A stretch of 64,000 nucleotides of DNA from Nitrospirales bacterium (GTDB lineage Bacteria; Nitrospirota; Nitrospiria; Nitrospirales; UBA8639), in NCBI GenBank assembly GCA_965223295.1, contig CBDCWC010000002.1, forward strand, positions 1,568,001 through 1,632,000, in the 5' to 3' direction. Positions 3,775-55,596 of the stretch are shown piece by piece (within the stretch, counting starts at the first letter, position 1; the number at the start of each line of letters is the position of its first letter). The position numbers were made by a program, and so were the translations under genes. A model generated the notes under the pieces. The model had not been told where the DNA came from. It made no database searches and was given only the letters and a program-made list of their open reading frames with translations.

Positions 3775-3935
3775 CTGAAGATACATACCATGCAGCAATT
3801 CTAGATGTCCGTTCACGATTACCTAGCAAAGCAGAAAGGAATAGCTTCTTAAACATCGGGAGATAGCACTTCGACATGAGTCTTATAGGTGGAATTTGTA
3901 TCTATTTAGATAAAAAGACGTATCTGTATAGATAC
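3775..3935 (-). promoter_or_regulatory. Tandem palindromic boxes plus degenerate sigma54-like promoter upstream of the DUF2235 gene
   Basis: GTATCTATTTAGATAA (3898-3913) and GTATCTGTATAGATAC (3920-3935). Minus-strand TGGTATGTATCTTCAG at 3790-3775, where the -12 element deviates (TTCA). Confidence 0.55.
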
Positions 3936-4541
3936 AATACTTCATGACATTTAAGATCGCGATTTGCGCATTGCGTTGAAGCCATCAACTGTGCCTGTGG
4001 CAATCAGTAGAAAACGTACCAATCTGTCCCCTAACCTTCCTAAAAACAAAGGTATTCATTTCTTTTCAAAGACAAGGCTCCTCGCATGGATGCGAAGAAC
4101 GTTCTGGCACCATTCTCTGTTCCTTTCCTGATGAGACTGAAAAGGCTATTTGAAAGAATATGAGTACTCGAGTACTAGTAAGCAGGACAACTGGGAGATT
4201 TAGTTTATAGCGTGAACGACTTTGAGAGAAATTCACACCGCCAGCTTATGAATATCCCTCTTGAAGAGCTATTGTCGCTCATTCCTTATTCATTAGGAAA
4301 GAAACACTGGCTAGCTTGTAGCAGATCTACAAGAAATTGAGGTGAACAGGAAGCTGTAAATTCAAAAATGAAGGAGAACCATCGCTACATTTTACGCAAG
4401 GCTAATACAATGATGGAGCTAAGCCATCCAAGAAAGAGGATGTTCATAAAAAATCCTTCCATTCTTTACTTATCGGTAGACGGTTTCATTACCTTAAGTT
4501 TTGTCTTGTTATCGCTCATTGTTATCGATTGGTTAGACACG

Positions 4542-4732
4542 GGGTCGGTTGAAAAAAGACGCCAGCGGCGTTCTCGCCATTGTTCCGTGCTCACATAGGA
4601 CCAGTACGCTCCGCGCGGCAAAATGGCTACGGCCTTGCTGGACGAACCTTTTTTAACTGGCCCGGAACCTCTGGTGGTCCGTAACGTCATGGTGCAATAT
4701 GGTCTTCAATATCGTCATTATTCAACAGTTCC
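4542..4732 (+). mobile_element. MITE family A copy 2 (191 bp)
   Basis: GGGTCGGTTGAAAAAA...TTATTCAACAGTTCC; same core sequence; flanks only partly duplicated (ACACG/ACAAT). Confidence 0.85.
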
Positions 4733-4805
4733 ACAATCGTTCCAGAACAAACATTTGAGACTGAATTACAGCCAAAAAGGAGAAAGAGGCAGGAGAAAAG
4801 ATAAG

Positions 4806-6020
4806 CTAATGAACTGAGGGAACGGGCAACCCTGCAATGTGATCTAACAGTTCACCTGCGAGTTGGCGTTTGGACATGCGAGGCAGATGAACAGGAGAGG
4901 CATCAGGAGTCAAGAGAATGACGGTGTTATCATCCCGACCAAATGCTGATTCTGAGCCGCCAACTTGATTCACAACAAGCAGATCAAGATTTTTCGCTGT
5001 CAATTTGGCCTGTCCATTCTTGATCATATTCTCAGTTTCAGCCGCAAATCCAACGAGGCGTTGATGGGTACGCTGCGCGGACAGGGTCAATAAAATATCC
5101 GGCGTCCGCTCCAGGTGAAGCGATTCTCCATTCCATTGGTTCTTCTTTACTTTGTGTCTATGCGATTCTTTTGAACGAAAATCTCCAACAGCTGCAGACA
5201 TAATAAGGGTAGTGGCCCAATCGAAACGCGCCGTCATGGCCTGTAACATCTCATCCGCCGTGACGACAGGCACTCGCGTCACTCCTGAAGGGCAATCAAG
5301 CTTGGTGGGGCCCGAAACTAATACAACCTCAGCGCCTCGTGCGGCAGCCACTTCAGCCATAGCATAACCCATTTTCCCAGATGAGCCATTGCTGATAAAT
5401 CGAACAGGATCTATAGGTTCCTGCGTGGGACCCGCAGATATTAACACTCGCTCACCTTGCCAATCTTTTCGAGTGTGGAGAATCTGCTGCAAGGTAGACC
5501 AAATAGTTTCTTCAGAAGCCAGCCGCCCCTGCCCCCATTGCCCAGAAGCCAATTCACCACGTTCTGGTTCTACAATGACAGCTCCCCGGCTCCGCAATGT
5601 CTCGACATGCGCCTGCACGGAGGGATGAGACCACATGTCTCCATCCATAGCAGGACAAACCACCATGGGACATTGCAGGGTCAGCGCCATCGTGCCCAAA
5701 ACATCGTCAGCCAATCCTAACGCCAATTTGGCAAGCGTATTAGCCGTACATGGTGCTACGACTAACAAATTGGCTTGATCGGTCAACGAAAGATGCTTCA
5801 TGTCCTGATGACCAGAAAAGAGATCCTTGGTCACAGGCGAGCCGGATAAGACTTCAAATGTCAGCGGAGTCACAAATTGTGTGGCAGATTCTGTCATCAC
5901 CACATGGACAGTCATCCCTTTCTGGGTCAGCAATCGCAACAGTCCTACGGCTTTATAGGCAGCGATACTTCCCGTTACAGCCAGGACAACTCGTTGATCG
6001 ACCATTTGAAAATCAGGCAT
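4806..6020 (-). CDS. coaBC: Phosphopantothenoylcysteine decarboxylase/ligase
   Basis: VTGSIAAYK, APCTANTLAK, AGPTQEPIDPVRFISNGSSGKMG and GFAAET motifs. Confidence 0.97.
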   Translation of the reverse strand: MPDFQMVDQRVVLAVTGSIAAYKAVGLLRLLTQKGMTVHVVMTESATQFVTPLTFEVLSGSPVTKDLFSGHQDMKHLSLTDQANLLVVAPCTANTLAKLALGLADDVLGTMALTLQCPMVVCPAMDGDMWSHPSVQAHVETLRSRGAVIVEPERGELASGQWGQGRLASEETIWSTLQQILHTRKDWQGERVLISAGPTQEPIDPVRFISNGSSGKMGYAMAEVAAARGAEVVLVSGPTKLDCPSGVTRVPVVTADEMLQAMTARFDWATTLIMSAAVGDFRSKESHRHKVKKNQWNGESLHLERTPDILLTLSAQRTHQRLVGFAAETENMIKNGQAKLTAKNLDLLVVNQVGGSESAFGRDDNTVILLTPDASPVHLPRMSKRQLAGELLDHIAGLPVPSVH

Positions 6021-6039
6021 GGATCAGGTTCACAATTTC

Positions 6040-6411
6040 TTACTCATCCGATTGTGGTTCAGCTTCGGCTACGCCGTGTTGAGCAGTATCATCAATATAC
6101 ACACTCAACTCTTTCTTAATTTCTTGGGCATTCTCATCAGGCGGCGCATACAGTGCTGGATCAATTGGTCGTTGACTTGCTATTCTCGCATCACGAATAG
6201 CCTGTTTGGCTTCTTGCCCAGTCAAATACGGGACATTTCCTCCCAACACTTCTTCAAGCGCAACGGAAGTGTCTTTCGCAAACTTGCTGCTCTCAGACGA
6301 CTCTGCTCCACGGACCAACTGCTTGGCTCGCTGAGCGGCTATCAACACGATCCTATAGCGAGAATCAAATTCTTTTTGATGATGTTGAGGCAATAACGAC
6401 AATGCATCCAT
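6040..6411 (-). CDS. rpoZ: RNA polymerase omega subunit
   Basis: SRYRIVLIAAQRAKQL...ALEE motif; gmk-rpoZ-coaBC synteny. Confidence 0.93.
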   Translation of the reverse strand: MDALSLLPQHHQKEFDSRYRIVLIAAQRAKQLVRGAESSESSKFAKDTSVALEEVLGGNVPYLTGQEAKQAIRDARIASQRPIDPALYAPPDENAQEIKKELSVYIDDTAQHGVAEAEPQSDE

Positions 6412-6489
6412 CCACTCACCTTTGTCCTTTCTCGAGAGTTCTCAATCTGATTAATACCTATCAGGCGACAACACGGCTATGACACAATT

Positions 6490-7095: not shown

Positions 7096-7128
7096 GCTGG
7101 CTCACTCACCATGCATTGCTGACATGAG

Positions 7129-8699: not shown

Positions 8700-8704
8700 C
8701 GTTC

Positions 8705-10408: not shown

Positions 10409-10432
10409 GCTCTGTCTCCTTTTCAGATTTCT

Positions 10433-28372: not shown

Positions 28373-29527
28373 CTAGACCAAATCAAAAGTAGCAGGGAAA
28401 TGACCTGGTCGGATTTGTCGTTGCGCCGCCGCTGTTCCAAGTAACGCCAGTTTATCCATGTTTTTTGGCTTATCCATTTTTTGAAGCCCTTTCACTTCAT
28501 GGGCATTAAGATCCACGGCTAAATTATCCTTTAACCACTCACGATCCAAGACCACATTATAACGAAGATACGAAAACAACTCTTTCCCACCTAGCACATC
28601 CCCACTCAGATCTCCAACTTCTCGATCAACCTCCCAGGCCATGGGACTACGAGACATCCATTGCAACATGGTTTGATTCATCGCATCGCAATCATTCATC
28701 AAAGACTTCAGAGCTTGGAGTGAAACTCTGGCCGAAGACATACCCATGACCTCACTCGCCGACATTCGGATTTCCTGTGCCCCCGTGCCAACAGATACCA
28801 GCAAGAGCTGATCAGCACCCACAGGCCATTTCAAACCGAACCCTTCAGTGGTTGCCATCAGCACCAATTGTAAAGCCGGATTATTGTGTGGACTCACGCC
28901 ACCATCCACAAACGCACCTTCCACACCTTTCCCAATTCGCAAGCGCTCTGGATTAAAATAATGTGGGGCTGCCGTACTGGCTCGCACAATTTCACGGAGC
29001 AGAAAATCCTTATTGGGCGAAGCTCTTCCTTTTTGGGATGCAGGATTGAAATATCGTCCCTTGGGGTTATTCATGAGCGGCCAAGGACTTCCTGAATCTA
29101 AGCGCTTCGTCATGATCATCAGTCCGGTTTGCAGATCGTCGCTCCCTAAGGTGCGGTCTCCAAACTGTTCGGTGAGCGCCTTCATGAGCGGGGTGCGGGG
29201 GAACTTGGCCTGAAAGATTCCTCTACGCCATATTGATTTCCGAAATACTTGCTCAGACAGTTCGTGATATAAGATTTCTAGCTTTTCCACGGTCCAACCT
29301 AAAGCTAGTCCTGTCGCGATAATGGATCCAGTTGAGGTCCCTCCAATCAGGTCAAAATACTGGCACAGACGAAAATGAGGATCATTCCCAGTCCGTTCGC
29401 ATAAGATCTTTTCTATCCGCTTCAAATACTGCAGTGTCAACATTCCGCGAACCCCGCCCCCATCCAAGGCCAACAGCCGTTTGGGACCGGGTGCAAATAA
29501 ATGTTGGTCACGAGTATGAGTGATCAT
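28373..29527 (-). CDS. Patatin-like phospholipase
   Basis: DGGGVRG, GTSTG, ASTAAPHYF and DGG motifs. Confidence 0.93.
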   Translation of the reverse strand: MITHTRDQHLFAPGPKRLLALDGGGVRGMLTLQYLKRIEKILCERTGNDPHFRLCQYFDLIGGTSTGSIIATGLALGWTVEKLEILYHELSEQVFRKSIWRRGIFQAKFPRTPLMKALTEQFGDRTLGSDDLQTGLMIMTKRLDSGSPWPLMNNPKGRYFNPASQKGRASPNKDFLLREIVRASTAAPHYFNPERLRIGKGVEGAFVDGGVSPHNNPALQLVLMATTEGFGLKWPVGADQLLLVSVGTGAQEIRMSASEVMGMSSARVSLQALKSLMNDCDAMNQTMLQWMSRSPMAWEVDREVGDLSGDVLGGKELFSYLRYNVVLDREWLKDNLAVDLNAHEVKGLQKMDKPKNMDKLALLGTAAAQRQIRPGHFPATFDLV

Positions 29528-29549
29528 AGGATCTCCAACTCTTGATATA

Positions 29550-30158
29550 TTATTTCGGGAGGGTAAGAATTTCAGTCACAACAATACCGCGCATTCGAGC
29601 TTCATTTGCAAAATGCCACGTCAGATCTCGTTCGCCACGAGGATGACCATCCCAGGCTATGACAGCGTGCATGCTCTGGAAATCTTGAGAAACATGTGTG
29701 GCGCCTTTCCTGGACTGCTTGGCAGATTGCCCCTGCGCCGCATCCAAGATAGCATGATTCACCGCTTGATACCCTGCATGTCGATCTTCACCTGTCTTCA
29801 GAATCACAAGATCTCCGTTCTCTTGAGCGGCACTCACAACTCCATCAAATATCGCCCCCCAATTCCATTCGTTTGAGTTAGGACGATCAACCACCGACGT
29901 CACTCGAAACTGTTCGACAGCAGATGGCAAAATAATTCGATAGCACACTCTGAGATTCTGCGCCACTTTCAACGCAAGTAAATCTGCTCCACAGGCAGCC
30001 GAGGCAATCAACATGGAAAACTCATTTTTTATAAACAGAGCCGTAATCTGTTGATACACCCGATCAATTTGAGATACCGGAAACCGAGACAGACTCGAAT
30101 CAGGAGCATCAATCCGTCGCCCTGCAAATCCAATAATAGAAGCTGGTCTCTTTTGCAT
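29550..30158 (-). CDS. Hypothetical protein, SLOG/LOG-like Rossmann fold
   Basis: FAGRRID, SAACGADLL, IILP...F and AVIAWDG...T patterns. Confidence 0.6.
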   Translation of the reverse strand: MQKRPASIIGFAGRRIDAPDSSLSRFPVSQIDRVYQQITALFIKNEFSMLIASAACGADLLALKVAQNLRVCYRIILPSAVEQFRVTSVVDRPNSNEWNWGAIFDGVVSAAQENGDLVILKTGEDRHAGYQAVNHAILDAAQGQSAKQSRKGATHVSQDFQSMHAVIAWDGHPRGERDLTWHFANEARMRGIVVTEILTLPK

Positions 30159-30161
30159 GTA

Positions 30162-32078
30162 TCAACTTGAAAGATTAACGGGCTTTGATTCGTGAAACCC
30201 TAGTTTCATCCATAGTGGACATAACATCATCCCCAGGATCAGCAACACTGCGATCCAGATCGTTCGAGAAGGCATCCAAAATGGCGCCGGGCTGCCGACC
30301 ATCCATGAACCAATCCCCGTGAGTACACAAAAAATCGACAACGCCGCTAAGCCCATGGCCAATACCGCTTGCCAAAAACGTTGGGAACTGATTGGATGAT
30401 TTGGATGAATTTGCTCCTCAATCGGCCCCCAAAACCCAGGTGGTTGGGCTCGTTGAAAAAAATTTTCTAAACGATCCTGATCTTCTGGCCCCGTGGCTAG
30501 CGAGACTCCCACTCCGATTATCCCGGAACCCAGGCCCATAATCAGTAATCGCAGCTGCTCTTGCTCTGGAAAGCCCCACAACAACAATGGCGCCAGCACT
30601 AGTGATGTCATGATGCAGGCTAGTTCACCCCACGCCGTTATTCGCCACCAAATCCAGCGTAAGACAAGTAACATGCCCATTCCGGCTCCTAATAATAAAC
30701 TCACCTGCCAGGCCATTTGAATCGAGGACAACCATGGAAGAATACTGAGCGCTATCATGAGTATCAGCACATTACTCCCTCGCGCGACCCACACCAAAGC
30801 CTGACGAGAAGGTTCACGCTTGAGCCAACTCTGGCAAATGAAACGCCGGCAGACATCATTCGTCCAATAGGACGCACCCCAATTTAAATGAGTATCAACC
30901 GTCGAAGCCAACGCGGCTAACATACCAACCAGCATCAACCCTTTTAATCCAGCCGGCAACAATTCATCAATGCCTTGAATAAATGTAAACTCGCGCGTGG
31001 CTAGATCAATTGGTCCAGGCGGGGGCGGAAAAATGACCAGCAACCCAAGGGCCAAGGGCAACCAAATCAAGCTCCGTAGGAGAACTTGCAGCACGGTAAA
31101 CACCACAGCGGCCAATCGTGCATCATCATCCGTACGACATGCCATAGATCGTTGCGCTAAATACCCAGTCCCATCCGCATTCATTTGCAGCAACCACTGA
31201 CAGCCATAGACAAGCATGACCATCATGGTGACATCTTTTGCGCCGGAGGGTGTAAACGCAAGAATTTGCTCACCGGTTAGAGGGTAACCCGTATTCGCAG
31301 CGAACAACTCATGAATCTTTTGAGTTAGGACCGCCAGCCCGCCCACATGATCCACCACCACCCACGCAAACCCCAAACTGGCCACCAATCCAATTCCTAA
31401 CTGGACCAGATCCGTCTGCACGACACTGCGCAGTCCCCCCGTGGTGGAATACAACATCGTGACTAGCACAATCGCTCCAATGGATATCAAATTATTGGTG
31501 GAGCGAATCCAAATGGACTCTGTCTCTATTCCCCCGATTGCAAACGGCACTCCGGCCCATTGCACGCTTTGCACACAACTCTCAAAGAACACCACTGGGA
31601 GCCAGTGATCCCACAACAGAAATGGCTCCGCCAAACGTGTCGCCGCCAACAGCACCATGGCCAAGACCGTACAATTCACAATGGTGCCAAAATAGATGGC
31701 TTTCATGCCACGTAGTACGGCCGCCGCCCGGTGGCCATACCGCACTTCCGTTAATTCAGCATCGGTCAACACACCCACTCGACGCCAACTTGGGGCGAGC
31801 AAGAATCCCATGAGCAAAAACGCCAGCGCATAAATCCACAAACGCCAAAGCGCAAAAATACCTGCCGTCGCGACCAGACCGGTCACAAGCAATGGCGTAT
31901 CGGCGGCGAACTGCGTCGCTGCCATGCTTAAACCCGCTTTCCAACCGGAAAGACTTTTTCCTGCTAAGAAGTACTCTTCAAGATTTTCGGAAGCTCGCGT
32001 CCGTTCCCGCAATCCTGCATAGAGCGCATACAGAACAAACACGGCCAGAATGGCCCAATCAAGAACTTCCATATTCAA
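30162..32078 (-). CDS. Sodium:solute symporter family protein
   Basis: EYFLAGK, SMAATQF, GGLRSVVQTD and AALASTVDT motifs; many TM helices. Confidence 0.92.
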   Translation of the reverse strand: MNMEVLDWAILAVFVLYALYAGLRERTRASENLEEYFLAGKSLSGWKAGLSMAATQFAADTPLLVTGLVATAGIFALWRLWIYALAFLLMGFLLAPSWRRVGVLTDAELTEVRYGHRAAAVLRGMKAIYFGTIVNCTVLAMVLLAATRLAEPFLLWDHWLPVVFFESCVQSVQWAGVPFAIGGIETESIWIRSTNNLISIGAIVLVTMLYSTTGGLRSVVQTDLVQLGIGLVASLGFAWVVVDHVGGLAVLTQKIHELFAANTGYPLTGEQILAFTPSGAKDVTMMVMLVYGCQWLLQMNADGTGYLAQRSMACRTDDDARLAAVVFTVLQVLLRSLIWLPLALGLLVIFPPPPGPIDLATREFTFIQGIDELLPAGLKGLMLVGMLAALASTVDTHLNWGASYWTNDVCRRFICQSWLKREPSRQALVWVARGSNVLILMIALSILPWLSSIQMAWQVSLLLGAGMGMLLVLRWIWWRITAWGELACIMTSLVLAPLLLWGFPEQEQLRLLIMGLGSGIIGVGVSLATGPEDQDRLENFFQRAQPPGFWGPIEEQIHPNHPISSQRFWQAVLAMGLAALSIFCVLTGIGSWMVGSPAPFWMPSRTIWIAVLLILGMMLCPLWMKLGFHESKPVNLSS

Positions 32079-32079
32079 C

Positions 32080-32544
32080 TCATTTCCAGAAATCAGGAAA
32101 TAACGTTGTCACCAGATACCACCCCCATAAGGGAAGGAGCAGCCCAACAGCCGCAAGAATTCCTCCCAATCCTATCGCCGTCCACCCCATGAGATCCGTT
32201 CGGGAACCTAACACGATTGGTGCTTGTGCACGAAATCCCATGCCAGCAGGCGGCCATTGCCCTGTCGCGCGAATTCTTGAGCCAATATACATCACATAGG
32301 CTCCCATCCCGACTGCAGGGAAACCCGCCATGATCGCGACCACTAACAGCATCAATCCGACTTGATAGATGGTCTCTGAACTTTGAGACGCCTCTCCCTG
32401 CGGTACCAATGAAAGATATTCCATGGTGAAATACAGCAGCGCACCCCCGAATACAGCTAGAATGACTAACAGGCTTAAGATTAATGGCTTTTGTGAGGAG
32501 TTCATACGATTCGAAATTACCCTAAGATAACACTCGCATAGCAA
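32080..32544 (-). CDS. Hypothetical membrane protein (3 TM; start may be 32505)
   Basis: Hydrophobic segments; GQWPP motif; abuts the next gene. Confidence 0.7.
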   Translation of the reverse strand: MLCECYLRVISNRMNSSQKPLILSLLVILAVFGGALLYFTMEYLSLVPQGEASQSSETIYQVGLMLLVVAIMAGFPAVGMGAYVMYIGSRIRATGQWPPAGMGFRAQAPIVLGSRTDLMGWTAIGLGGILAAVGLLLPLWGWYLVTTLFPDFWK

Positions 32545-32618
32545 GTCCTTCCGCTCTCCCCAAGGGGGCGAGGGAAATCCAAGATATTTTTTGGAGATCT
32601 CGCAATACCCAACATCAC

Positions 32619-33905
32619 TTATGCCTGATTCCGACGAATGCGTTCATGCCGCCGGCCTACCCACAGTCCTGTCGCTAACCAGAGCGCGGCAATGGGCATG
32701 GCCGTAAAGGCCATAGCGGGCAACCCCATTCCCCAGGTATGCAACAGAGAGACAATTCCCGTTCCGGTTGCATCGGCCCCTCGATGCACAACCGTATCAA
32801 TCACATTTTTCGCTTGATATTTTTCTTCGCGGGGCACCACGGTAAACAATGTTTCTCGTGTGGGTTTGGTAATAGAAAATTCTCCCGCCCGCCGTACAAC
32901 ACCAAACCCAATCAACACTGGCAACACGGTCCACATGCCAAACACGCCAAACCCAAGAAATGACACGAGCGGCATGACGGCTAACATGATCACCACACCA
33001 AAGCGCGACAGCAACCATCCTATTGCAAAAAATTGTAGCGTGAACGCTAACACATTAATCCCAAGATCCACAGACGCAAACAGTTGTATCCGATCTTCTG
33101 AATTCGGCATCACTTCAGGAATCAAAATCGTTTGCTGCGAATAGAGAAAGGTTGAAAGAATCGAATAACACATGAGATACAGGGCAATGCCTCTCAAATA
33201 GGGAGAACGAAGAATACGTACAGCCCCAACCCATAGGCTAGGTGGTACGGCATCAGAGTCCTTCATTGAGGACAAATGTGCTTCACCCAGGTCAACCCCA
33301 TGATGTGCGTGATACCATTGCAAGATTGCCAGAATGCAACCAACGGCAAATACTAAAAACGTTCCTGACACCAACAAGAGACCCTGAATCCCCACGCCTT
33401 TTACCGCCAACGCGGTAATGAATGGCCCGGTCATCGCACCAAGACTGCCTCCAGCCGAAATACACCCAAACAATCGACGAGCCGCATTCGTCGGAAACAC
33501 ATCGGCCATAAAACTCCAAAAGACTGATACCACAAAGAGATTAAAGACACTCAGCCATACAAAAAAAATCGGCCCAATGACTGCCAACTCAAACCCACTC
33601 TGTAAGGCCATAAAAAATCCAAAGAGATTCAGCACGAAAAACCCATAGACTGTTGGGAGTAAACGACGGATAGGGAAGCGACCGGCCACCCACCCAAACA
33701 ACGGAATCACCGCAAGCATAGTGAGAAACACGGCTCCAAATAACCAAGGAAGCGAATGTGCCCCTGACAATACCCCCATTTCATCTCGCACTGGCCGCAG
33801 AATATAGTACGCCGCCAAGACACAAAAAAAATACAAAAAGGACCAGAACAGGGCTGGCAGTTCTTCACGTTCAACCGGGACAACTCGTCGGATTAGCTCA
33901 TACAT
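32619..33905 (-). CDS. MFS transporter of the ATP:ADP antiporter (NTT-like) family
   Basis: AYYILRPVRD, NLFVVSVFWSFMAD and EKYQAKNVIDT motifs. Confidence 0.88.
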   Translation of the reverse strand: MYELIRRVVPVEREELPALFWSFLYFFCVLAAYYILRPVRDEMGVLSGAHSLPWLFGAVFLTMLAVIPLFGWVAGRFPIRRLLPTVYGFFVLNLFGFFMALQSGFELAVIGPIFFVWLSVFNLFVVSVFWSFMADVFPTNAARRLFGCISAGGSLGAMTGPFITALAVKGVGIQGLLLVSGTFLVFAVGCILAILQWYHAHHGVDLGEAHLSSMKDSDAVPPSLWVGAVRILRSPYLRGIALYLMCYSILSTFLYSQQTILIPEVMPNSEDRIQLFASVDLGINVLAFTLQFFAIGWLLSRFGVVIMLAVMPLVSFLGFGVFGMWTVLPVLIGFGVVRRAGEFSITKPTRETLFTVVPREEKYQAKNVIDTVVHRGADATGTGIVSLLHTWGMGLPAMAFTAMPIAALWLATGLWVGRRHERIRRNQA

Positions 33906-33990
33906 AGAAATCAGGCCCTATTCGGTTTTTGCCAGCATCTACATTCTGTACACACACTTGTTGTTTCTATGGAAATGCAGCTGGAGTGCC

Positions 33991-34797
33991 TTAGGAGATT
34001 TCGAAGACTCGAGAAATGCAGGGAGCGCCATAATCAGCAGACCCGGTGAGCACCTGAAGATTAGGAAGCATCTGGGCTGTTCCCTCATGATGCGTATGCC
34101 CGCAGAGAACGGTCACCTGACAGTTAGGTCTCGCTTGCGTGACGTCCAGTAACATTGAGCCAACAGCGTGGCAGGTAAAGTACGGCAACCAATCATCATT
34201 GCCCGGTTGACCTTCATACCAGCAGGCCTCTTTAAAGGGTGGCACATGAATCAAACAATAAACCCGTTCATAGGAGTCCATGGCATTGTTGAGCACATCT
34301 CGCAGATAAGCAGCAGATTCATCGCCCAAGGCCTGAAGCTTTCGTAGAATGGCATCCCGATCCAGCCCATGAAAATCCCGGATCAACTCTTGGTCACTCA
34401 ATCTCACTGGAGTCTGATGGTAATGGCCTAACCGGCCATCCCCCCACCCATCATGCCCAACTAAGACCGTCCTTGCTGTCAATTCAATTGGTCCCAAAAC
34501 AGAAAGATACTGGAGGCCTGATTGAGTGAGACACCAATTTTGAATTTCACATCGGCCTGATTCAATGGACCCATGGTAAAAATCATGATTCCCCAAGACA
34601 AAATAGATTGGCGCATTCACCGCTTGCTGCATTTCCTGCAGAAGCTCTTGCAGACAAGGAGCTTCTGCAATGTCACCCGTGATCAAAACGATATCAGGGC
34701 TCCTTTCACGAACAGCCAAATAAAATTTACCCCGCTCAGAAGGACGGAGAAAATTCAAATGAATGTCTGTTACCCATAACACGCGCATGTCCCGCAC
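33991..34797 (-). CDS. Calcineurin-like metallophosphoesterase (CpdA/Icc-like)
   Basis: TDIH, TGD, GNHD, HVPP and GHTH motifs. Confidence 0.9.
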   Translation of the reverse strand: MRDMRVLWVTDIHLNFLRPSERGKFYLAVRERSPDIVLITGDIAEAPCLQELLQEMQQAVNAPIYFVLGNHDFYHGSIESGRCEIQNWCLTQSGLQYLSVLGPIELTARTVLVGHDGWGDGRLGHYHQTPVRLSDQELIRDFHGLDRDAILRKLQALGDESAAYLRDVLNNAMDSYERVYCLIHVPPFKEACWYEGQPGNDDWLPYFTCHAVGSMLLDVTQARPNCQVTVLCGHTHHEGTAQMLPNLQVLTGSADYGAPCISRVFEIS

Positions 34798-47744: not shown

Positions 47745-48212
47745 TAAAGATCATTGGCGACCAACTATTGGTTCTGTCCAGACGTGGCAGAACAACATGA
47801 GACTCAAAAAATTAAGGAGGGTCCCTCAGAAAGTTTTCTCAAAAAACCCCCTTAATTTTCGTCTACTCGACACCCTCCCCATCAGACTCTCGAATAGCCT
47901 AAGTTCATACTCTTCATACCTTTTTTTCTGCCTCGTCTTATCCAAGTCACCTCAAACCCATGCCTTTTTCTTGCCCAGAATAAACGCTATCTTTTGTTTT
48001 TTCCATGTGCTAGGCTTTATCCTTCAAAGCTAGGGGCTTGGCTTTGAGCGAGCCGATCACTGAAGCCCGTAACCGGTGTTGTTTTGCCCGAGAGTTTCCT
48101 GGAAAGTGCCTGACCTCAGTCGCCTCAATCTCGCGTCCGCGGCCGCTCCCTTCCCATTGGTTGATGAATCTCGAGCCAAAAGCAATATCATTTTTTCAAA
48201 AGGAGGAACCCC

Positions 48213-48542
48213 ATGGGTTCAAAATTGTACGTAGGGGGATTGCCGTATTCCGCAACTCAGGACGAGTTAACGGAGTTGTTTGCGGCGCATGGGACCGTTC
48301 AATCAGCCAACATTATTAGCGACAAATTTACCGGACAATCTCGCGGATTTGGTTTCGTGGAAATGTCTTCGCAAGAAGAAGCCACAGCGGCCATAGAAGC
48401 GTTAAACTCCACAGAATTTGGTGGTCGAACATTAACAGTCAACGAAGCTCGCCCCCAAGCCCCACGAACCGGCGGCGGAGGACGCGGCGGATTTGGCGGC
48501 GGTGGAGGAGGGTTTGGCGACAAACGCCGCAGCCGCTTCTAA
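48213..48542 (+). CDS. RRM RNA-binding protein with Gly-rich tail (Rbp-like)
   Basis: RNP2 LYVGGL, RNP1 RGFGFVEM, RGG tail; AGGAGG RBS. Confidence 0.96.
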   Translation: MGSKLYVGGLPYSATQDELTELFAAHGTVQSANIISDKFTGQSRGFGFVEMSSQEEATAAIEALNSTEFGGRTLTVNEARPQAPRTGGGGRGGFGGGGGGFGDKRRSRF

Positions 48543-48567
48543 CGAACCTTGCAATATCGCTTACCAC

Positions 48568-48600
48568 AAAGAGGAGAGGTCATAAAGACCTCTCCTCTTT
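48568..48600. terminator. Bidirectional intrinsic terminator
   Basis: AAAGAGGAGAGGTC-ATAAA-GACCTCTCCTCTTT between convergent genes. Confidence 0.85.
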
Positions 48601-48629
48601 GTTTTTAATATGCTCATTGCCTTTTCAGA

Positions 48630-49760
48630 TTATTGAGGTTGCTCTAAGCCTGTAGAACGAGCAAGTGTGTTGGTACCTGCGACTTCCTCCTCAGAGTCTA
48701 AGGGAGCCATCCCCTTAAAAACAGCATCACTTAATTTCCGCTTTTTGACAAATTCGTTAGCAGCTCGACCCGTCGCAAAAAATTGCACATGTCGAGACCT
48801 ACTCGTATCAGGTGTAGCAAAGCTGTTATCGTTGTCCAAGGAAGCAAAGAAAGAAGGCACTTTCACTTCATACCAAGGGTTAAATGGTATTGGTTTCTTA
48901 TTTATATCGAGTTTAGGCGTACCATCCTCGTTCGCCAAAACCCGTTCCTCATTTTCGTTTAACACCACTTTCGTGTGCTTCCCATCTTCATCTACTTTAG
49001 GTTCCCCTTCTTCATCGGCTAAAACAAAATGACCACTATCGTTAAAAACTACCCTAGGTTGTCGTGGATTTTGATCCTGACATCCTTCCTTCGTCATTAC
49101 CGGTGGAATAGCTGACTCTTTTCGATTGTACCCAAGCTTCAAGTTCGTTGGGTACGGACCACCTGTACCATCCCATCCCACCTTAATTCCCACTGTCGTA
49201 TCCGTTGCGAAATAAAAGGCCCTTGTATTTTCGTCACCTTCTCCGAATAGCCAATGCCAAAACTTTTTCAGGGGAGGACGCGAGTCGGGTTTCTTGTCTA
49301 GACAAATCTCAGAATAAAGGCTGTCATCGTCTTCTGTTGAGGTCTCATCATTCTGAACAGGATCACTTCCTGAACCAACTGAACCTGTCGTAATGGCCTT
49401 ACTCGATAGACTCTCATCATCTGTTGTCGACTTTTCGCTTGACTCATTTTTTTTAGCTAGAAATACTGCCGCATCACCCCCTGCAAATAATGAGTTTAGG
49501 CCAGGGCTAAACAATCCTCCTGTTCGACCGAATGAAGCAATCAGCGGGGGCGTTTTCTCTTTTCCTACATTGTCTCTAAAAGCTGGCGCAATAGCCAACT
49601 CTCTTCTAGCGACGGTTATTTCTGCTGTTGGAGGTTTGTTTTCGACATCAAGACCCACATTGGTTTTTGTAACAAAAAGAATTCGGTCATATCCAAAGCA
49701 ACCGCTTAACAATGTCGAGCATAGAAGCATTGTCATACTCAATTTCAAGAAAGTAGTCAT
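48630..49760 (-). CDS. Uncharacterised lipoprotein with two homologous domains
   Basis: Lipobox LSGC; internal duplication (see findings). Confidence 0.85.
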   Translation of the reverse strand: MTTFLKLSMTMLLCSTLLSGCFGYDRILFVTKTNVGLDVENKPPTAEITVARRELAIAPAFRDNVGKEKTPPLIASFGRTGGLFSPGLNSLFAGGDAAVFLAKKNESSEKSTTDDESLSSKAITTGSVGSGSDPVQNDETSTEDDDSLYSEICLDKKPDSRPPLKKFWHWLFGEGDENTRAFYFATDTTVGIKVGWDGTGGPYPTNLKLGYNRKESAIPPVMTKEGCQDQNPRQPRVVFNDSGHFVLADEEGEPKVDEDGKHTKVVLNENEERVLANEDGTPKLDINKKPIPFNPWYEVKVPSFFASLDNDNSFATPDTSRSRHVQFFATGRAANEFVKKRKLSDAVFKGMAPLDSEEEVAGTNTLARSTGLEQPQ

Positions 49761-50173
49761 GGATGATCCTCCTTGTATTCAAGTGAATCTTTCAGTGCTG
49801 TATCGACAGAAGTTTTTGCCGGATAGGATCCTATCTTAAATTCAAAAAAGTCATTGCTTGGTGGTCGATCAATAGTTAGCGCAGTACTATCATCATAAAT
49901 AAGAATATGTTCACGTTGTGCCCACCCAATACTTATGCCCAATTCGCCATTATCTAAACCTAAAGCAAGCCCAGGTAAGGTTGTCCTCTGAATCAGTGCT
50001 TGCTTTTCATTTGAAGTAGGTGCCACCTTCATCGCAAGGTGACCAATACCCCAGATATGTTCAGCACCCGACTCACGGTCACGGTAATAAACTGCACACC
50101 CGCAGACATGCAAACTTACAATCAGTAGAATAAAAATTCTTAATGTCAGGCTGAACAGGAATGAGAGAACCAT
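49757..50173 (-). CDS. Uncharacterised lipoprotein
   Basis: Start at 50173 gives a signal peptide ending in VCGC; ATGA overlap with the downstream gene. Confidence 0.75.
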   Translation of the reverse strand: MVLSFLFSLTLRIFILLIVSLHVCGCAVYYRDRESGAEHIWGIGHLAMKVAPTSNEKQALIQRTTLPGLALGLDNGELGISIGWAQREHILIYDDSTALTIDRPPSNDFFEFKIGSYPAKTSVDTALKDSLEYKEDHP

Positions 50174-50215
50174 ATGGTACCGATCCGAAGTAGAGCCTTT
50201 GCTAAAAATAAAGCC

Positions 50216-50376
50216 TGCAAAAGTGAGACCCGGACATTGAATATCAGAAAGAGTGCTTAAAAAAGGAATTCCCCCCAGCAATAAACCCATAAGGTTATCG
50301 TGAATATCTCTTCTTAATCCAAATGATCACTGAAAATTTGTATCTAAAAAGATAAGTCCTGTATCTATTTGGATAA
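50216..50376 (-). promoter_or_regulatory. Sigma54-like promoter plus tandem upstream boxes
   Basis: Minus-strand GGGTCTCACTTTTGCA (50231-50216; GG-N10-GC). Boxes GTATCTAAAAAGATAA (50340-50355) and GTATCTATTTGGATAA (50361-50376). Confidence 0.7.
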
Positions 50377-50535
50377 TTTTTCGTGATTTTTAATGGAACG
50401 TATTCTGAACAGACCAATTGCTTGGCCTAATTTGAAAAAATAGGGGAGGTTTTAGTCTTAGAAAGGAATTAGGAGCAGAGCATTAGGACAGCGACTAATT
50501 TTGGGAAGAGACTGCTAAACGAACCTTCTATAAAA

Positions 50536-50658
50536 GCCATAGAGGCATTCAACTCCTCAGAATTTGGTTGACGTACCTTGACAATCAACGAGACCCACCC
50601 CTAAGCCCCACGCACCGGGGGCGGAAGGTTCGGACACAACGGTGGTAGCAGCTTCTGA
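50536..50658 (+). pseudogene. Decayed duplicate of the 3' end of the RRM (rbp) gene
   Basis: Translates AIEAFNSSEFG*RTLTINETHP*APRTGGGRFGHNGGSSF* versus AIEALNSTEFGGRTLTVNEARPQAPRTGGG...FGDKRRSRF*. Confidence 0.9.
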
Positions 50659-50678
50659 TACACATTCCATTCACAGAA

Positions 50679-50709
50679 AAGAGGAGAAGCCTTTTTGACC
50701 TCTCCTCTT
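50679..50709. terminator. Hairpin homologous to the rbp terminator; probably ends the lipase transcript
   Basis: AAGAGGAGAAGCCTTTTTGACCTCTCCTCTT. Confidence 0.7.
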
Positions 50710-50744
50710 GTGTTGTGTCAATTCTATTTTTGATGCCTATGGGC

Positions 50745-51920
50745 TTAGGGCAATTCTTTCAACAATGAAAAAATGTTCTTATAGAGCGTCTTCTGGGCTC
50801 CGATTAGACTGGGATCCGTGAAACACCCGAATCCAATATCCAGATGATCGAAGCTTCTGCCAGTGCTCTCTTTCACTTTTTCATAATACCACTTTCCTGG
50901 CTCAATTGGATTTCTTGTAAATATTCCCTCCCCTCCGACCGGGTGCTCTTTTCCCGTAAAGGGATAGCGTTGCGAGATGGAACTCACTGCTCCATCATTT
51001 TCTCGCCACTTCTCAATCACAAGATCGCCAGATCCCCAACTAGGAATTGGTGGATGATCAAAGTCCACGACAACTCCTTGATAAGCAGCCGTGGCTGCCA
51101 AGGAAGGATTCATTAACGGATCTGGATAATGATTAGAGGTCAGCCAACCTTTCGTGGTTTGTTCCGTGATAAAAGAGAGGTAGTAGGTCTGAGGGTCAGT
51201 TTGAAATCGTTGATTGGCTTCGTATCCCCCTTGAAGGGTGAGATCAAATGCTAAGTTATCCTTTCCTTTCGCATAGTTGCTGCGATCTATCTCAGCGACA
51301 ATATTTTTGAAATTCCCGCCTTTCCCTTTTCCAATCCATTGATCCAGGTCAAAATCAAAAATATTCTCAATGGACCCTCCACCGGCCATCGCAAAAAACT
51401 GAATGGCTTTCCCCAGAACAGGACCCAAAGAACCGACTAACAAGCCAGATTGTTTATCACAGCCCAACATATAGGGGAGCGTCGACCCATTCAAGACCGC
51501 AGACAAACACACCACCGCTTCGATCCATTGGGCGTTGGAACCCCATCCCCAGAAATCATCAGCCAACAACTGCTGCAATCGCAACGCGGTATGGCCTCCA
51601 GCACTATGTCCAATAATGATGACTGGGTTATCTTCTGACCAATCTGGAATCAACCCTTTCCCTGTATAATCATCAGAAAATCGGCTATGTTTTTCGGCTT
51701 CACCATGCGAGGCACCATAGTCAATATGCGTACCTTTGATTTGGGCACCCACTTCACAAGCGCGATCATGAAAGGAACTGACCGGTCCGCAACTCGCCTC
51801 ATGTACCGTAAAACCTTGGTGATCGACCTCGCCAGCATACCCCCAGTACGGCAAACCGCCTAACTCCTTTTTGCCCCAACCAAATAAACCGTGGATTAAG
51901 ACAGTATGCTGTGATTTCAT
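50745..51920 (-). CDS. Lipase (Staphylococcus/Geobacillus family I.5/I.6-like), no signal peptide
   Basis: HGLFGWG, GPVSSFHDRACE, GHSAGG, WRENDG and DHLDI motifs. Confidence 0.9.
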   Translation of the reverse strand: MKSQHTVLIHGLFGWGKKELGGLPYWGYAGEVDHQGFTVHEASCGPVSSFHDRACEVGAQIKGTHIDYGASHGEAEKHSRFSDDYTGKGLIPDWSEDNPVIIIGHSAGGHTALRLQQLLADDFWGWGSNAQWIEAVVCLSAVLNGSTLPYMLGCDKQSGLLVGSLGPVLGKAIQFFAMAGGGSIENIFDFDLDQWIGKGKGGNFKNIVAEIDRSNYAKGKDNLAFDLTLQGGYEANQRFQTDPQTYYLSFITEQTTKGWLTSNHYPDPLMNPSLAATAAYQGVVVDFDHPPIPSWGSGDLVIEKWRENDGAVSSISQRYPFTGKEHPVGGEGIFTRNPIEPGKWYYEKVKESTGRSFDHLDIGFGCFTDPSLIGAQKTLYKNIFSLLKELP

Positions 51921-52078
51921 AACTTGCTTCCTAGATCAGACCTATCCTGCTTCATCTTCACGACAATCTATTTTCCAACAGCACACGGGCTCCCATCCCG
52001 ATTCTTACTGTTTTCAACAAATTCAACTAAATAACGGCACACTAGACGAGCTCACCCTTCACTCACTCCCAAAACTCA

Positions 52079-52402
52079 CTAAACAATTACTTTGGCAACT
52101 TTTTCAGCAATGGCAATCACGCGAGCACCTCGATGTATAATGACAGATACATTTTTCAGTTTCTTCTTTTCACCTTTCAGTTCTTTCGTGATATCTGCAA
52201 GGGCTTTTCTCGCGTCAGTAATTTCAGTATTAGTCTGCCCCGCGCGTATGTCATCAATCTTTCTCCACCATTTGGTCATAGCCTTAATTTGACTATTGAT
52301 TGCCGCGCGATCGATCGAATCAGTAATTTTTTCTCGAATCGCGCCTAAATCTAAGATAATTGTCGCAAGTTCGTCTAAAAATTCCTCAGGGGTAGTCACC
52401 AT
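52079..52402 (-). CDS. Small helical hypothetical protein
   Basis: AGGAGA before the ATG at 52402; amphipathic heptad pattern. Confidence 0.75.
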   Translation of the reverse strand: MVTTPEEFLDELATIILDLGAIREKITDSIDRAAINSQIKAMTKWWRKIDDIRAGQTNTEITDARKALADITKELKGEKKKLKNVSVIIHRGARVIAIAEKVAKVIV

Positions 52403-52451
52403 TGTTTTCTCCTTTGCTGCTAAACGCTTCGCGGGAAGCACCTGTTTTCAT

Positions 52452-53375
52452 TTAATGAGTAATCTGATTCAAGGTTGATAAAAGATTTCGCGCATCACCG
52501 ACAAACTTAGCGATCGTATCGGAGTTGCCTCTCAAATCTGACTGTCGAATCGCCTCATGAGCCTTGACACAACTTTCTACGGTTGATTCAAACTTCTTAA
52601 TAAATAAGCGTGACGGCTCCACCGTAAGGATATCCCGCAATTCGTTTTTCACCAATTGACTAGCAAGTAAATCAAAGGTGGCTTTTTCAGCTGGAGTCAC
52701 GTCTGGATCCTTATAGTTGGCTCGAAAACCATTGAACCATGTTTCACGTGTCGCTTGCGCATTGAGTCTTGTAATTTTGCTCCGAGTCTGCATACCCTTA
52801 ATATCTTTTCGAATGACATCGGTGATAACTTTGATCTGCGGGTGCGCCAATTGGACTTTCTCATAAATGACATCCCTTACCTTCAGATCTACAAACACCT
52901 TCGCCAGAGAAGAAATCGCAGTGGCCAGAACTTGGTCTTTCTGATTCACCGAACCGTCTAACGTCTTTGAAAGATCTCCGAGATTGCCACTCAGCTCCTT
53001 TGAGGCTTTCCCAATATTTTTGTCGTCATTAAATGTGGCAATTTCATGGAGTCCCCTAGCATATTCGGCTAACGATGAAATCGCCGCGCGATTACGGCGA
53101 GCTTCAGCCATGAGGTTTTCACCTTTCACCGCACAATCCCAAGGAGTTCCAGCGCAATCAGAGCTGTCTTCGGGAGCTCCCAAATCCACCGTCATCGCAG
53201 CTAGTTGACGATCGGTTTCTAGTTCCATTTCGTAAAATTTTCCAGAAGCTTCCGACAGAGCTTCTGCGCCATCCGCAAATTTACCAACCGCTTCTAGATT
53301 CACACATCCATTGAGCATGCCAACCAGAAAGAAAAATCCTAGTAACAGACTATTCCGACGTCTGATTTCTGCCAT
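52452..53375 (-). CDS. Uncharacterised alpha-helical lipoprotein
   Basis: Basic N-region, hydrophobic core, lipobox LNGC; AGGAGG RBS. Confidence 0.85.
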   Translation of the reverse strand: MAEIRRRNSLLLGFFFLVGMLNGCVNLEAVGKFADGAEALSEASGKFYEMELETDRQLAAMTVDLGAPEDSSDCAGTPWDCAVKGENLMAEARRNRAAISSLAEYARGLHEIATFNDDKNIGKASKELSGNLGDLSKTLDGSVNQKDQVLATAISSLAKVFVDLKVRDVIYEKVQLAHPQIKVITDVIRKDIKGMQTRSKITRLNAQATRETWFNGFRANYKDPDVTPAEKATFDLLASQLVKNELRDILTVEPSRLFIKKFESTVESCVKAHEAIRQSDLRGNSDTIAKFVGDARNLLSTLNQITH

Positions 53376-53525
53376 GTTTGTTCCTCCTATTATGATTGTT
53401 AAATCTTCAAAAGAACGGGGCTATAGCAGCATTTACAGTGTTGTAAAACGATCTATCATTGATATTCCTCGTGTCTACACGACTTCGATTGAGCAACCAA
53501 CTATAAAACCTTCATGTCTAAAGAT

Positions 53526-53716
53526 GGGTCTGTTGAAAAAAGCCGCCAGCGGCGTCCTCACCCTTTTTCCTTGCTCAGGTCATACCAGTACGCACCGCGC
53601 ACAAAAATGGCCGCGGCCTTGCTGAACGGACTTTTTTGAACAGACCCGAGGTCTCTGACATGTAACGTCGCAGAGACGAAATGTGGCCATTGACATCATC
53701 ATTATTCAACAGCCCC
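53526..53716 (+). mobile_element. MITE family A copy 7 (191 bp)
   Basis: GGGTCTGTTGAAAAAA...TTATTCAACAGCCCC; direct repeat AAAGAT. Confidence 0.88.
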
Positions 53717-53837
53717 AAAGATGATTTCTTGCATTTCTCTATATGAAATACTCAATAAGAACCACATCCACGTTTGAAAGAGCGCTGAACAATACCATTG
53801 CTGACACATCTAACAAAACACGCTTCCCTCATGCCAA

Positions 53838-55241
53838 TCAAAATTTATGGGTGTTTTTCTCTAAACGCTTTGCTTTTTTTCGAGCAATGATTTCTACGTC
53901 GATTCCAGTTGGGCGAACAGCGACTTTCGTAAAATTATCGTCAGAAATCACTTTGCTGGGGTTGGCTAACCGAAATAGGCCAGCCTCTCCACCATCGATA
54001 AACCCTTTTGTTTGAAAATGCCGTGCGGATGGATGCGGGTACGGCCAAAAAAATGCAGAAGACACGACGGAAATAATTTTCAAATTTGATTCCGATACGA
54101 GCTCTACCGACAGTGAAGCATGAACATCTCCAGAGAAAAAGACTACCTTTTGAACTTTATTCTCCTCAATATGAGTAAGAATTTCCTTTCTTTGGTGTTG
54201 AAATCCTGCCCATTTATCACATGATTCTTCAGAACCTGAATCTGGGGCAAATGGAACAGACGTGACAATTATCTTGACCTGCCCCGACCCATCATTCAGC
54301 CACCGTTTAAGTGCCCGCATCTGGTCAATACTCAACATTTCGGACTTCCCGTCTGGATCCAACAGCCGCTCGGTTCTGGAATCAGTCACAAAAATATCAC
54401 AACATCCATCTGAGTATTTGTACCAAAGTTTGTTGGGTGTCCCATGCAATCTTCCTTGCTTGATAGGAATGAGCGGGCTATGGCTGAGTTGATAGGTTTG
54501 GTAAGCATGAATGGCATTGGGAAACAGAGTTTTCCAATCCTTGCCGCTAGATTTGGCTGGCCAATTATCTTCAATCTCGTGATCATCAAGCGTCATATAA
54601 GTGGGAACTTGACTCATCAATGTTCGAATATGTTTCTGAGAAAAGGCATCTCGATAGCGTTGGTAAAACTGACTTACAGATTTGTCTGGATTGAACACAT
54701 TGAGATCATCCGCATAAATTTGGTCGCCCATCATGATCAACTGGTGAACTTCGATGCCTTCATCCTGAATGAGATCCTTCACAATTGATTCGAACATTTT
54801 ATCTCCACGATCATCAAAGAAATCACCAAGGAATGTTTTCAGAAGATATCGACAGGACCCTATAACAAGAGTCCGAGATTTTTTCTTATTGGCCGATGCA
54901 GTCAGAAACTCCCCACCACTTACTCCTTCCCAGTCAATATCCTCAAAAATTTCATCCATTAACTCGGAATCCGAAAAGTAGTACCCCATTTGATATTCAT
55001 AACGCTCCTCGGGTCTTAACCTGTCTAATATGGCGATCCCTGTTAAATCAAAATTGGGATTCATCTTAAAGGTGAGGGGCTTGCTCCAGTTTTCGGTTTC
55101 CTTTTTACGAAAGCGAAGAGCACCAAAACATCGTCGTGGTTGGCCTTCAATGATATGAGCCATACCACGTCCCCAAATACGTGCCCGAGTCGGGGTCGTT
55201 TCTCCGACAATCGGACCAACTGTTAACGGATGAAGTTTCAT
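53838..55241 (-). CDS. PhoD-like alkaline phosphatase/phosphodiesterase, no signal peptide
   Basis: GSC, GDQIYAD, DDHEIEDNW, DSR, DKW and SGDVH motifs. Confidence 0.9.
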   Translation of the reverse strand: MKLHPLTVGPIVGETTPTRARIWGRGMAHIIEGQPRRCFGALRFRKKETENWSKPLTFKMNPNFDLTGIAILDRLRPEERYEYQMGYYFSDSELMDEIFEDIDWEGVSGGEFLTASANKKKSRTLVIGSCRYLLKTFLGDFFDDRGDKMFESIVKDLIQDEGIEVHQLIMMGDQIYADDLNVFNPDKSVSQFYQRYRDAFSQKHIRTLMSQVPTYMTLDDHEIEDNWPAKSSGKDWKTLFPNAIHAYQTYQLSHSPLIPIKQGRLHGTPNKLWYKYSDGCCDIFVTDSRTERLLDPDGKSEMLSIDQMRALKRWLNDGSGQVKIIVTSVPFAPDSGSEESCDKWAGFQHQRKEILTHIEENKVQKVVFFSGDVHASLSVELVSESNLKIISVVSSAFFWPYPHPSARHFQTKGFIDGGEAGLFRLANPSKVISDDNFTKVAVRPTGIDVEIIARKKAKRLEKNTHKF

Positions 55242-55440
55242 AAATCCTCCATAAATCTGAAAATATCACCAAAGATCATATAGATAAGAACGAAAACAAA
55301 ATATCTTTGACCGGATATCAGATCGTCGTACCTTACTTTTCATTGTTAACTACTAGTCGCAGGGGGGTTAGATACTAGATCTTCGATCAACTCTCAACCA
55401 TGTTTCCTCTGACTCTCCAAAGAAGCACCTACCTTATATC

Positions 55441-55596
55441 TGCAAAGACGAGACCTAGGCAGTGGAAAGCAATCAGATTTTTCTACGGAGAAATTTCCTG
55501 GAAAAATGAAGAAATTATCGTAAATGCTTCTCTATTATCCAGTCAGCTTCTTCAAGTTTGTATCTAAAATGATAAAATATGTATCTATTCAGATAA
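55441..55596 (-). promoter_or_regulatory. Sigma54-like promoter plus tandem upstream boxes
   Basis: Minus-strand AGGTCTCGTCTTTGCA (55456-55441). Boxes GTATCTAAAATGATAA (55560-55575) and GTATCTATTCAGATAA (55581-55596). Confidence 0.7.

Follow-up and report, generated by a model that had tools for sequence, protein, structure and literature searches.

NtrC-class activators of sigma-54 promoters act at tandem upstream activating sequences (UAS), as NtrC does at glnAp2. Such UAS are palindromic and in many cases tandem, lie some 80-150 bp from the promoter and keep helical phase with it, and a site for integration host factor (IHF) between UAS and promoter is common but not obligatory. The accessory Tle1/Hcp clusters of type VI secretion systems (T6SS) stand under a sigma-54 activator of the VasH type. 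The box of the PrsK-PrsR-PrsT system is given by Haft et al. 2006 (PMC1569441), in their account of the motif, as 17 nt ending in TTTACA and lying 63 +/- 11 nt from the promoter, and the TyrR box is listed for A. brasilense with the consensus TGTAACG-N4-CTTTACA (PMC6375630). With these systems we compare here a paired palindromic box found at three minus-strand units in a 64,000-nt stretch of the genome of a Nitrospirales bacterium related to nitrite oxidisers (the window; G000:C2:1568001-1632000, where G000 is the genome, 3.78 Mb and 100% complete, and C2 and C3 are its contigs). In searches of the open-access literature, no description of a sigma-54 regulon, an activator site or this motif was found for Nitrospira; the supplementary motif tables and figures of PMC4641369 could hold a similar motif.

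Paired boxes and their sigma-54 promoters

For these units, the initial annotation is correct in the position of all six boxes, of each of the three -24/-12-like strings and of the TTT. The box measures 18 bp, TGTATCY-N4-RGATACA, and occurs in tandem at 20-22 bp; its core TATC/GATA is best kept (0.94-0.97 per position in a matrix of 44 boxes) and the outer TG..CA reaches 0.54-0.64. With a matrix trained on no more than the six window boxes, a search of the whole genome yields 24 pairs spaced by 19-23 bp, compared with 1-3 in five block shuffles; when both boxes are held to at least 10 bits within 10-60 bp, 20 of 22 pairs are spaced by 20-22 bp, with a sharp peak at 21-22 bp. Because of this genome-wide excess and this spacing, the paired boxes are not a product of chance. 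The whole-genome scan for the tandem box, a check already proposed with the first description, thus yields 22 pairs in G000 (spacing 20-22 bp, both boxes at least 8 bits, two weak calls discarded), three of them in the window and 19 elsewhere; a retrained matrix recovers the identical 22 loci, against 0-1 in six shuffles, a comparison that is circular by design.

G000 encodes RpoN and about 22 sigma-54 activators. The promoter element GG-N10-GC, whose co-occurrence with the tandem box at about 100-115 bp had been anticipated, lies in the form GG-N8-YTGC at 95-135 bp from the proximal box in 16/22 pairs, compared with 3.5% of 5000 random intergenic positions, and in 14/19 when only pairs outside the window are counted; the bins at 10-50, 50-94 and 136-176 bp hold 1, 0 and 1 promoters. 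Box-promoter distances group at 97-99, 103-113 and 119-120 bp and follow a helical period of 10.5 bp (R=0.52, p~0.008, n=17; outside the window, R=0.61, p~0.005, n=14), which is what an enhancer working by DNA looping needs. Distances and phase both back the earlier proposal that the boxes are tandem enhancers, each pair serving a sigma-54 promoter some 100-120 bp away. The link between pair and promoter recurs, within 55-140 bp, in 11/16 pairs of same-family relatives, 12/22 pairs of assorted Nitrospiraceae and 7/16 pairs outside the order. We consider it very probable that the boxes are UAS of sigma-54 promoters, and thus real enhancer modules. Some points weigh against this reading: the range of 95-135 bp was fixed after a first look at the distances (100-115 bp having been predicted), six of the 22 G000 pairs are not counted as having a promoter in that range (for two of them, one is seen at 133 and 148 bp), and at the g13 locus no sigma-54 site lies within 620 bp (0/6 pairs). 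IHF-like sites show no clear enrichment in the spacers (5/17 against a shuffled mean of 4.3), and a sigma-70 scan of window 48400-56300 gives 10 sites where 13.6 are expected.

A particular arrangement is found at the hemL locus of the Nitrospiraceae, where a near promoter accompanies 0/14 pairs. In L056:1000-1640 and 12 other Nitrospiraceae loci, hemL and a gene of about 80 aa with an acidic tail converge on the pair, which lies between their 3' ends, and the sigma-54 promoter stands some 360-550 bp off, on the far side of this small antisense gene, reading toward an SNase-like secreted protein. The sequence CTGGCAC-N5-TGC is conserved there, 359-550 bp from the pair, in 9/13 loci at >=9 bits. 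To judge from this layout, the hemL locus is a putative enhancer acting across an antisense gene; action over more than 300 bp is known in four Desulfovibrio cases among those reported in PMC4641369.

Could the pairs instead be recombination, integration or chromosome-organising sites, with the promoters as passengers? Their position at junctions with variable cargo (the CopD-like locus of module 3, described below, and the hemL locus) and the pairs that have no nearby promoter would fit such a role. The phased distance to GG-N10-GC, the conserved remote promoter of the hemL loci, the occurrence of pairs beside members of one activator clade in two phyla, and the lack of any recurring recombinase among the neighbours in 120 metagenome loci, matched to G000 proteins, make it a very unlikely explanation.

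A candidate reader: the L011 activator clade

The boxes are probably read by one NtrC-class activator, a member of the clade of L011 (Table 1), which is the most likely identity of the single enhancer-binding protein that had been postulated to be encoded outside the window. The stronger argument for this clade is co-location of box and activator gene, rather than co-occurrence counts. In a Latescibacterota record, found by its DNA pattern alone, the pair lies just upstream of an activator with the helix LGLQRTYL, whose best match in G000 is L011 (45%). Among 120 metagenome loci likewise chosen by DNA pattern, L011 is the best match of five activators, four of which lie within about 1 kb of the pair; in L229, L257, L268 and L284, the L011-like activator is next to the pair, at 49-55% identity. 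FhlA-like matches (5 ORFs) lie about 4 kb from the pair, and an L019-like gene is found at the edge of one locus. Pairs adjoin the activator gene in the distantly related families f3, f5, f9, f10 and f17. They are directly upstream of it in G003 and in G304, G329 and G185 (where the promoter is found at 83, 64 and 119 bp, respectively); in G178 and G195, they follow it directly and precede a receiver gene. The reverse search, starting from the protein, gives the same association, as the helix alone led to G718 and G696, which then proved to have box pairs beside the activator or about 5 kb from it (23-25 bp apart, 10-15 bits per box); a second G718 locus has no pair.

Orthologs of L011 are present in 16/16 genomes of the genus (69-93% over the C-terminal 87 aa) and across the order, and also in cultured species (ALA60130.1 in N. 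moscoviensis; WNM61232.1 in Ca. N. neomarina). Of 221 Nitrospirota genomes, 56 match the helix pattern and 31 contain the strict pair; the reversed patterns, run as controls, match 0 genomes in either case. Of the 31 box-positive genomes, 28 are helix-positive; two of the three exceptions (G055 and G064) have the variant LQRSYL, and the third, G233, appears to be a chance match. In genomes from outside the order, the pair occurs in 4/8 helix-positive against 1/145 helix-negative genomes (Fisher p=1.6e-5, kin not being independent). In a quick tree of 38 rows, from which L015, L022 and five relatives' sequences were lost at trimming or extraction, the activators group as one clade (SH-aLRT 98), with L018 as a long-branch in-paralog. 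The helix-turn-helix (HTH) of L011 has no PDB match.

Other observations speak against L011 as the reader of these sites. An exact pair is absent from half of the helix-positive genomes (28/56). In genus g2, a 58-61% ortholog (LQRSYL) is present, with a pair in 0/34 and 0/15; the three relaxed matches there consist of a 21-bp sequence repeated in tandem, and no box is found at three g2 kinase loci. No box lies near the main Nitrospiraceae ortholog loci, nor at G064:C40 or G076, and co-location is therefore not universal; G200 has a single box and L424 none. Finally, the in-paralog L018 may read some of the sites.

This last point belongs to a broader alternative, in which the boxes are sigma-54 enhancers with another or an additional reader: L018 (C3:764254), the FHA activator L015 (C3:1734549) or the GAF activator L020 (C3:838129). 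Each of the three genes has a pair at a distance of no more than about 1 kb, L018 belongs to the clade in the tree, and an L020 ortholog stands beside the pair in metagenome locus L212. Their helices differ, however (LQIHRSFL, LNVSRGTV, LGISRQGL), five distant genomes that have boxes hold no close C-terminal match to any of the three (<=41%), and the operon behind the L020 pair keeps this pair in G067 and G102 with a different gene in the place of L020. We therefore think this alternative unlikely and retain the L011 clade as the probable reader. Two described activators were also considered and ruled out, PrsR by box sequence, spacing and helix, and TyrR by core sequence, N-terminal domain and a score of 257 against a cut-off of 576.

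In L335, L336 and L337 (G121, G075 and G057), genes for a TonB receptor, a PF04392 protein and a kinase are clustered with that of a second activator, a paralog with the helix LGLQRTYLTR. Boxes near these activators often end in ...GATTCA and lie 17 bp apart, possibly a sign of diverged specificity.

Regarding other phyla, the all-species genome scan took core spacings of 19-20 bp only, and the common 21-22 bp pairs were surveyed only in the genome sets of four other scans, which covered spacings of 18-21, 21, 21-22 and 20-22 bp. The 19-bp matches of the all-species scan (Endozoicomonas, Smithellaceae, Kiritimatiellae, Acidobacteria) are probably unrelated; the activator helix was not found in three of these genomes nor in a Solimonas genome, all four tested. 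A looser helix pattern gives chance matches in 6/301 genomes of the phylum of the Smithellaceae record, none of them in an activator, and therefore no clade member in this sample; it also gives chance matches in 3 of the 6 genomes of the Latescibacterota phylum. One 82-kb Endozoicomonas contig carries a 35-bp box-like sequence seven times, about 10 kb apart (L081, L082, L088, L089, L105, L108, L109), and these copies probably sit inside a repeated unit.

Candidate kinase, binding protein and proposed mechanism

Kinases that adjoin clade members form a common H-box subfamily with differing sensor domains, and G000 has only two members of it (C3:1042326 and C3:1618721; Table 1). In g5 and g7, the first has the activator gene as its neighbour, and its operon, behind the box pair at C3:1046457, is kept in G088 and G116; the second may provide another input to the same activator. 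The PF04392 binding protein encoded with the first kinase recurs in G329, in G185 and in a Nitrospiraceae paralog cluster. Solved members of the PF04392 family bind Trp, Tyr or Phe (PMC10443332), and the G000 protein scores only 90 against a TrpX cut-off of 390, a wide shortfall. The presence of boxes before the probable kinase and the PF04392 protein suggests positive feedback.

Boxes, spacing, promoter association, phase, conservation, and co-occurrence and co-location with the activator clade are direct observations, from which we infer activator binding, phosphotransfer, ligand and physiology as follows. The membrane histidine kinase (C3:1042326-1044659), probably stimulated via the co-transcribed PF04392 solute-binding protein, would phosphorylate L011; two activator dimers 20-22 bp apart, on one helix face, would oligomerise, the DNA would loop over ~100-120 bp, and the AAA+ ring would open the sigma-54 complex. 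As the binding-protein/kinase operon itself lies behind a pair and promoter, the circuit would amplify itself. Accessory cargo, including the three units of the window, would be gained and lost behind existing modules.

A bolder and rather unlikely proposal is that the activator, the kinase and the PF04392 protein, plus a box-controlled TonB-dependent receptor in several lineages, form a self-amplifying loop that senses an extracellular aromatic molecule and switches Nitrospira to an aggregate or biofilm state with exopolysaccharide (EPS), adhesins, secreted oxidases and peptides. If true, this would be a quorum-like lifestyle switch other than by acyl-homoserine lactone (AHL), conserved across a phylum of key nitrifiers, into which newly acquired genes are plugged.

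Target genes

A Pfam search covered 77 of the 105 open reading frames (ORFs) around the 19 pairs outside the window. The targets include an EPS cluster (DegT, sugar transferase/Polysacc_synt_2, export protein), Ig/BNR and CBM proteins, an autotransporter, an efflux set, a cytochrome-c protein with a PEP-CTERM gene, a tyrosinase-PPC protein, a di-haem peroxidase, two REC-PAS proteins, a lone receiver, the PF04392 binding protein with its HAMP-GAF histidine kinase, and two radical-SAM enzymes behind a repetitive peptide. In this last, box-controlled operon (L034:12147-16598; G000:C3 387.7-392.2 kb), a 176-aa protein with repeated DPAPW motifs is followed by a B12-radical-SAM and a radical-SAM enzyme, an order that resembles a precursor cluster for a ribosomally synthesised and post-translationally modified peptide (RiPP). 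Exported proteins are predicted for 23 of 46 target ORFs against 33% of 2904 (p~0.011), an enrichment that is weak, since it relies on a hydropathy heuristic and counts three ORFs twice. The output seems to consist of about 20 operons of mixed surface, secreted and signalling functions, with a modest excess of exported proteins, and this set fits the general link of sigma-54 with the cell exterior as put forward in PMC3162934.

The initial annotation had seen in the window units a dedicated regulon of lipid/phosphate hydrolases and lipoproteins, used for envelope attack or defence or for lipid-phosphorus scavenging. Hydrolases do occur in two of the three window units, and a separate DUF2235 type (737-759 aa) has its own box pair directly upstream in G128, G165 and G161 (L346, L347, L350). 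In the other 19 units, however, no lipase or phosphatase was found by Pfam as first or second downstream gene; the gene of module 1 is broken, no N-terminal signal peptide was seen by eye in PhoD, the lipase or the DUF2235 protein, and PhoD homologs (70-83%) in 5/7 genomes have no box within the fetched flank. The T6SS sheath protein VipB (PF05943) has 0 matches in the genome, with a positive E. coli control, which together with the mixed targets leaves envelope attack or defence without support and speaks against a T6SS link (Hcp and VgrG were not searched). Phosphorus scavenging is likewise at odds with a list that mixes EPS, adhesins, oxidases and signalling. The genome-wide targets thus largely refute the hydrolase regulon, which we now regard as highly improbable; a mixed surface and signalling programme is the reading kept here.

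The three modules of the window

Table 1. Coordinates of boxes, promoters and genes (window positions unless a contig is named)
Feature	Position	Strand	Remarks
Module 1 promoter-proximal box, TGTATCT-ATTT-AGATAAA	3897..3914	.	matrix and position check
Module 1 distal box	3919..3936	.	22 bp from proximal box; matrix and position check
Module 1 degenerate sigma-54 site	3775..3790	-	-24 GG 107 bp from box; -12 GC missing
MITE-like repeat, ~150 bp	3613..3771	.	~56 genome copies; directly behind module 1 promoter
DUF2235 (Tle1-like) phospholipase gene	1744..3336	-	one in-frame stop splits 318 + 185 aa
Module 2 proximal box	50339..50356	.	matrix and position check
Module 2 distal box	50360..50377	.	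21 bp; matrix and position check
Module 2 sigma-54 -24/-12 element GG-N10-GC	50216..50231	-	108 bp from box
Predicted lipoprotein, 138 aa	49757..50173	-	lipobox-like VCGC; sequence reading
Predicted lipoprotein, 376 aa, no family	48630..49760	-	lipobox-like LSGC; homologs in 6/40 genus genomes
Module 3 proximal box	55559..55576	.	matrix and position check
Module 3 distal box	55580..55597	.	21 bp; matrix and position check
Module 3 sigma-54 -24/-12 element	55441..55456	-	103 bp from box; kept with boxes in G128, G046
PhoD-like phosphatase, 467 aa	53838..55241	-	N-terminal export signal not seen
Predicted lipoprotein, 307 aa, LNGC, no family	52452..53375	-	absent between phoD and next gene in G128, G046
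120-aa protein, no family	52079..52441	-	
Lipase-like protein (PF24708), 391 aa	50745..51920	-	similar gene directly after phoD in G128, G046
CopD/UPF0093-like membrane gene	55685..56176	-	its 3' end is a fixed anchor before box and promoter
Candidate reader L011, receiver - AAA+ (GAFTGA) - Fis-type HTH	G000:C3:1036887-1038302		recognition helix L-x-LQR[TS]YL-[SAT]-R
Candidate kinase, periplasmic region, HAMP, GAF, HisKA, HATPase	C3:1042326-1044659		operon behind pair C3:1046457
Second kinase of H-box subfamily	G000:C3:1618721-1621057		best match of g2 kinases adjoining activator

Both boxes of module 1 are strong, and its GG is followed by CA at the place of the -12 GC, which is the case in 1/17 aligned promoters; the sigma-54 site is probably weak or dead. 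The DUF2235 protein has a membrane tail, and an intact 528-aa homolog exists in G169 (71% over 529 aa). In public contigs (four runs of one study), a related strain has a different base within the stop codon, and the break is therefore recent or an assembly error. With the lost -12 GC, the miniature inverted-repeat transposable element (MITE) and the in-frame stop, module 1 appears to be decaying. A shared descent of its promoter and the phoD promoter of G128 was considered and dropped, as the collinearity falls in a multicopy repeat. Such MITE- or REP-like repeats lie at window 1456-1644, 3613-3771, ~4530-4740, 53522-53717 and 56360-56589, with about 50-230 genome copies each. Elsewhere in G000, pair C3:766712 is followed by a first gene (C3 766.0-766.5 kb) that meets a stop after ~58 codons; the piece has no Pfam match, and the gene is apparently a second decayed target.

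The alignment of module 2 with module 3 extends over ~270 bp (50215-50493 vs 55440-55709, 174/266 identical, 65%), with a score of 94 against at most 38 in 100 shuffles; the likeness of the 50.2 and 55.4 kb copies noted earlier is thereby upheld, and its extent of ~160 bp was too short. This alignment implies common descent, and the two modules are therefore not independent evidence. For the TTATCGTRAAT that both contain, inheritance is the best reading, since the modules share descent and IHF-like sites show no clear enrichment. In relatives, the 3' end of the CopD-like gene is followed by box and promoter and then by varying cargo: PhoD in G000 and G046, the lipoprotein pair, directly, in G174 and G171, another gene in G088. 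This recurring unit therefore represents one site with exchangeable cargo, duplicated here. G128 has boxes, promoter and phoD as in module 3, and the pair and promoter of module 2 are kept before the same gene pair in 3/6 relatives' loci (G174, G171, G177). The 138-aa lipoprotein has no NCBIfam match, and its longer 177-aa ORF no Pfam match. A 90-bp stretch is duplicated at 81% on either side of the lipoprotein pair (50536-50625 vs 48390-48479), possibly a trace of the insertion of this pair. A minus-strand cluster at window 28373-34797 (patatin, SSF transporter, TLC/MFS transporter, metallophosphoesterase) has no box and is unrelated to the regulon.

Significance and comparison with known systems

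A motif with a named candidate reader, a candidate kinase and a target list allows the control of surface and EPS genes to be tested directly and without host genetics. Moreover, one core circuit offers a view of regulon turnover, from one or few sites in many Nitrospiraceae to 22 here, with an enhancer that seems to act across an intervening gene and a genus that keeps the activator without detectable sites.

The window shares with T6SS Tle1 clusters a DUF2235 phospholipase behind a sigma-54 promoter, but VipB was not found in the genome and the DUF2235 gene is broken, membrane-tailed and one of about 20 targets. With the TyrR box, it shares an 18-bp palindrome and the outer TGT...ACA, so that the outer geometry pointed out in the initial annotation stands, while membership of a TyrR regulon does not: the core is TATC..GATA and not TAA..TTTA, and the proposed reader has a receiver domain instead of an aromatic-amino-acid-binding N-terminus. 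The PrsK-PrsR-PrsT system, as presented in PMC1569441, is similar in being a dispersed, exported and EPS-linked sigma-54 regulon found by cis-site profiling, and here one target unit has a PEP-CTERM gene at its end and another consists of an EPS cluster. It differs in its 17-nt box nearer to the promoter, as opposed to a paired TGTATCY-N4-RGATACA ~110 bp away, and the true PrsR of G000 is L002 (TIGR02915 601 vs cut-off 503), with a different helix, L011 scoring 396.

A likeness in organisation also exists to NtrC-class systems. AtoC, ZraR and NtrC are names under which relatives are entered in databases, but L011 passes no NCBIfam equivalog cut-off (AtoC 401 vs 714, the best; NtrC 393 vs 559; ZraR 332 vs 760), the box sequence is another one, and the targets are not nitrogen assimilation genes. 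The receiver-AAA+-HTH architecture with GAFTGA, the tandem palindromes on one helix face, the -24/-12 element about 100 bp away, and even the putative occasional long-range action, comparable to the Desulfovibrio cases of PMC4641369, are all features that the regulon described here has in common with this class.

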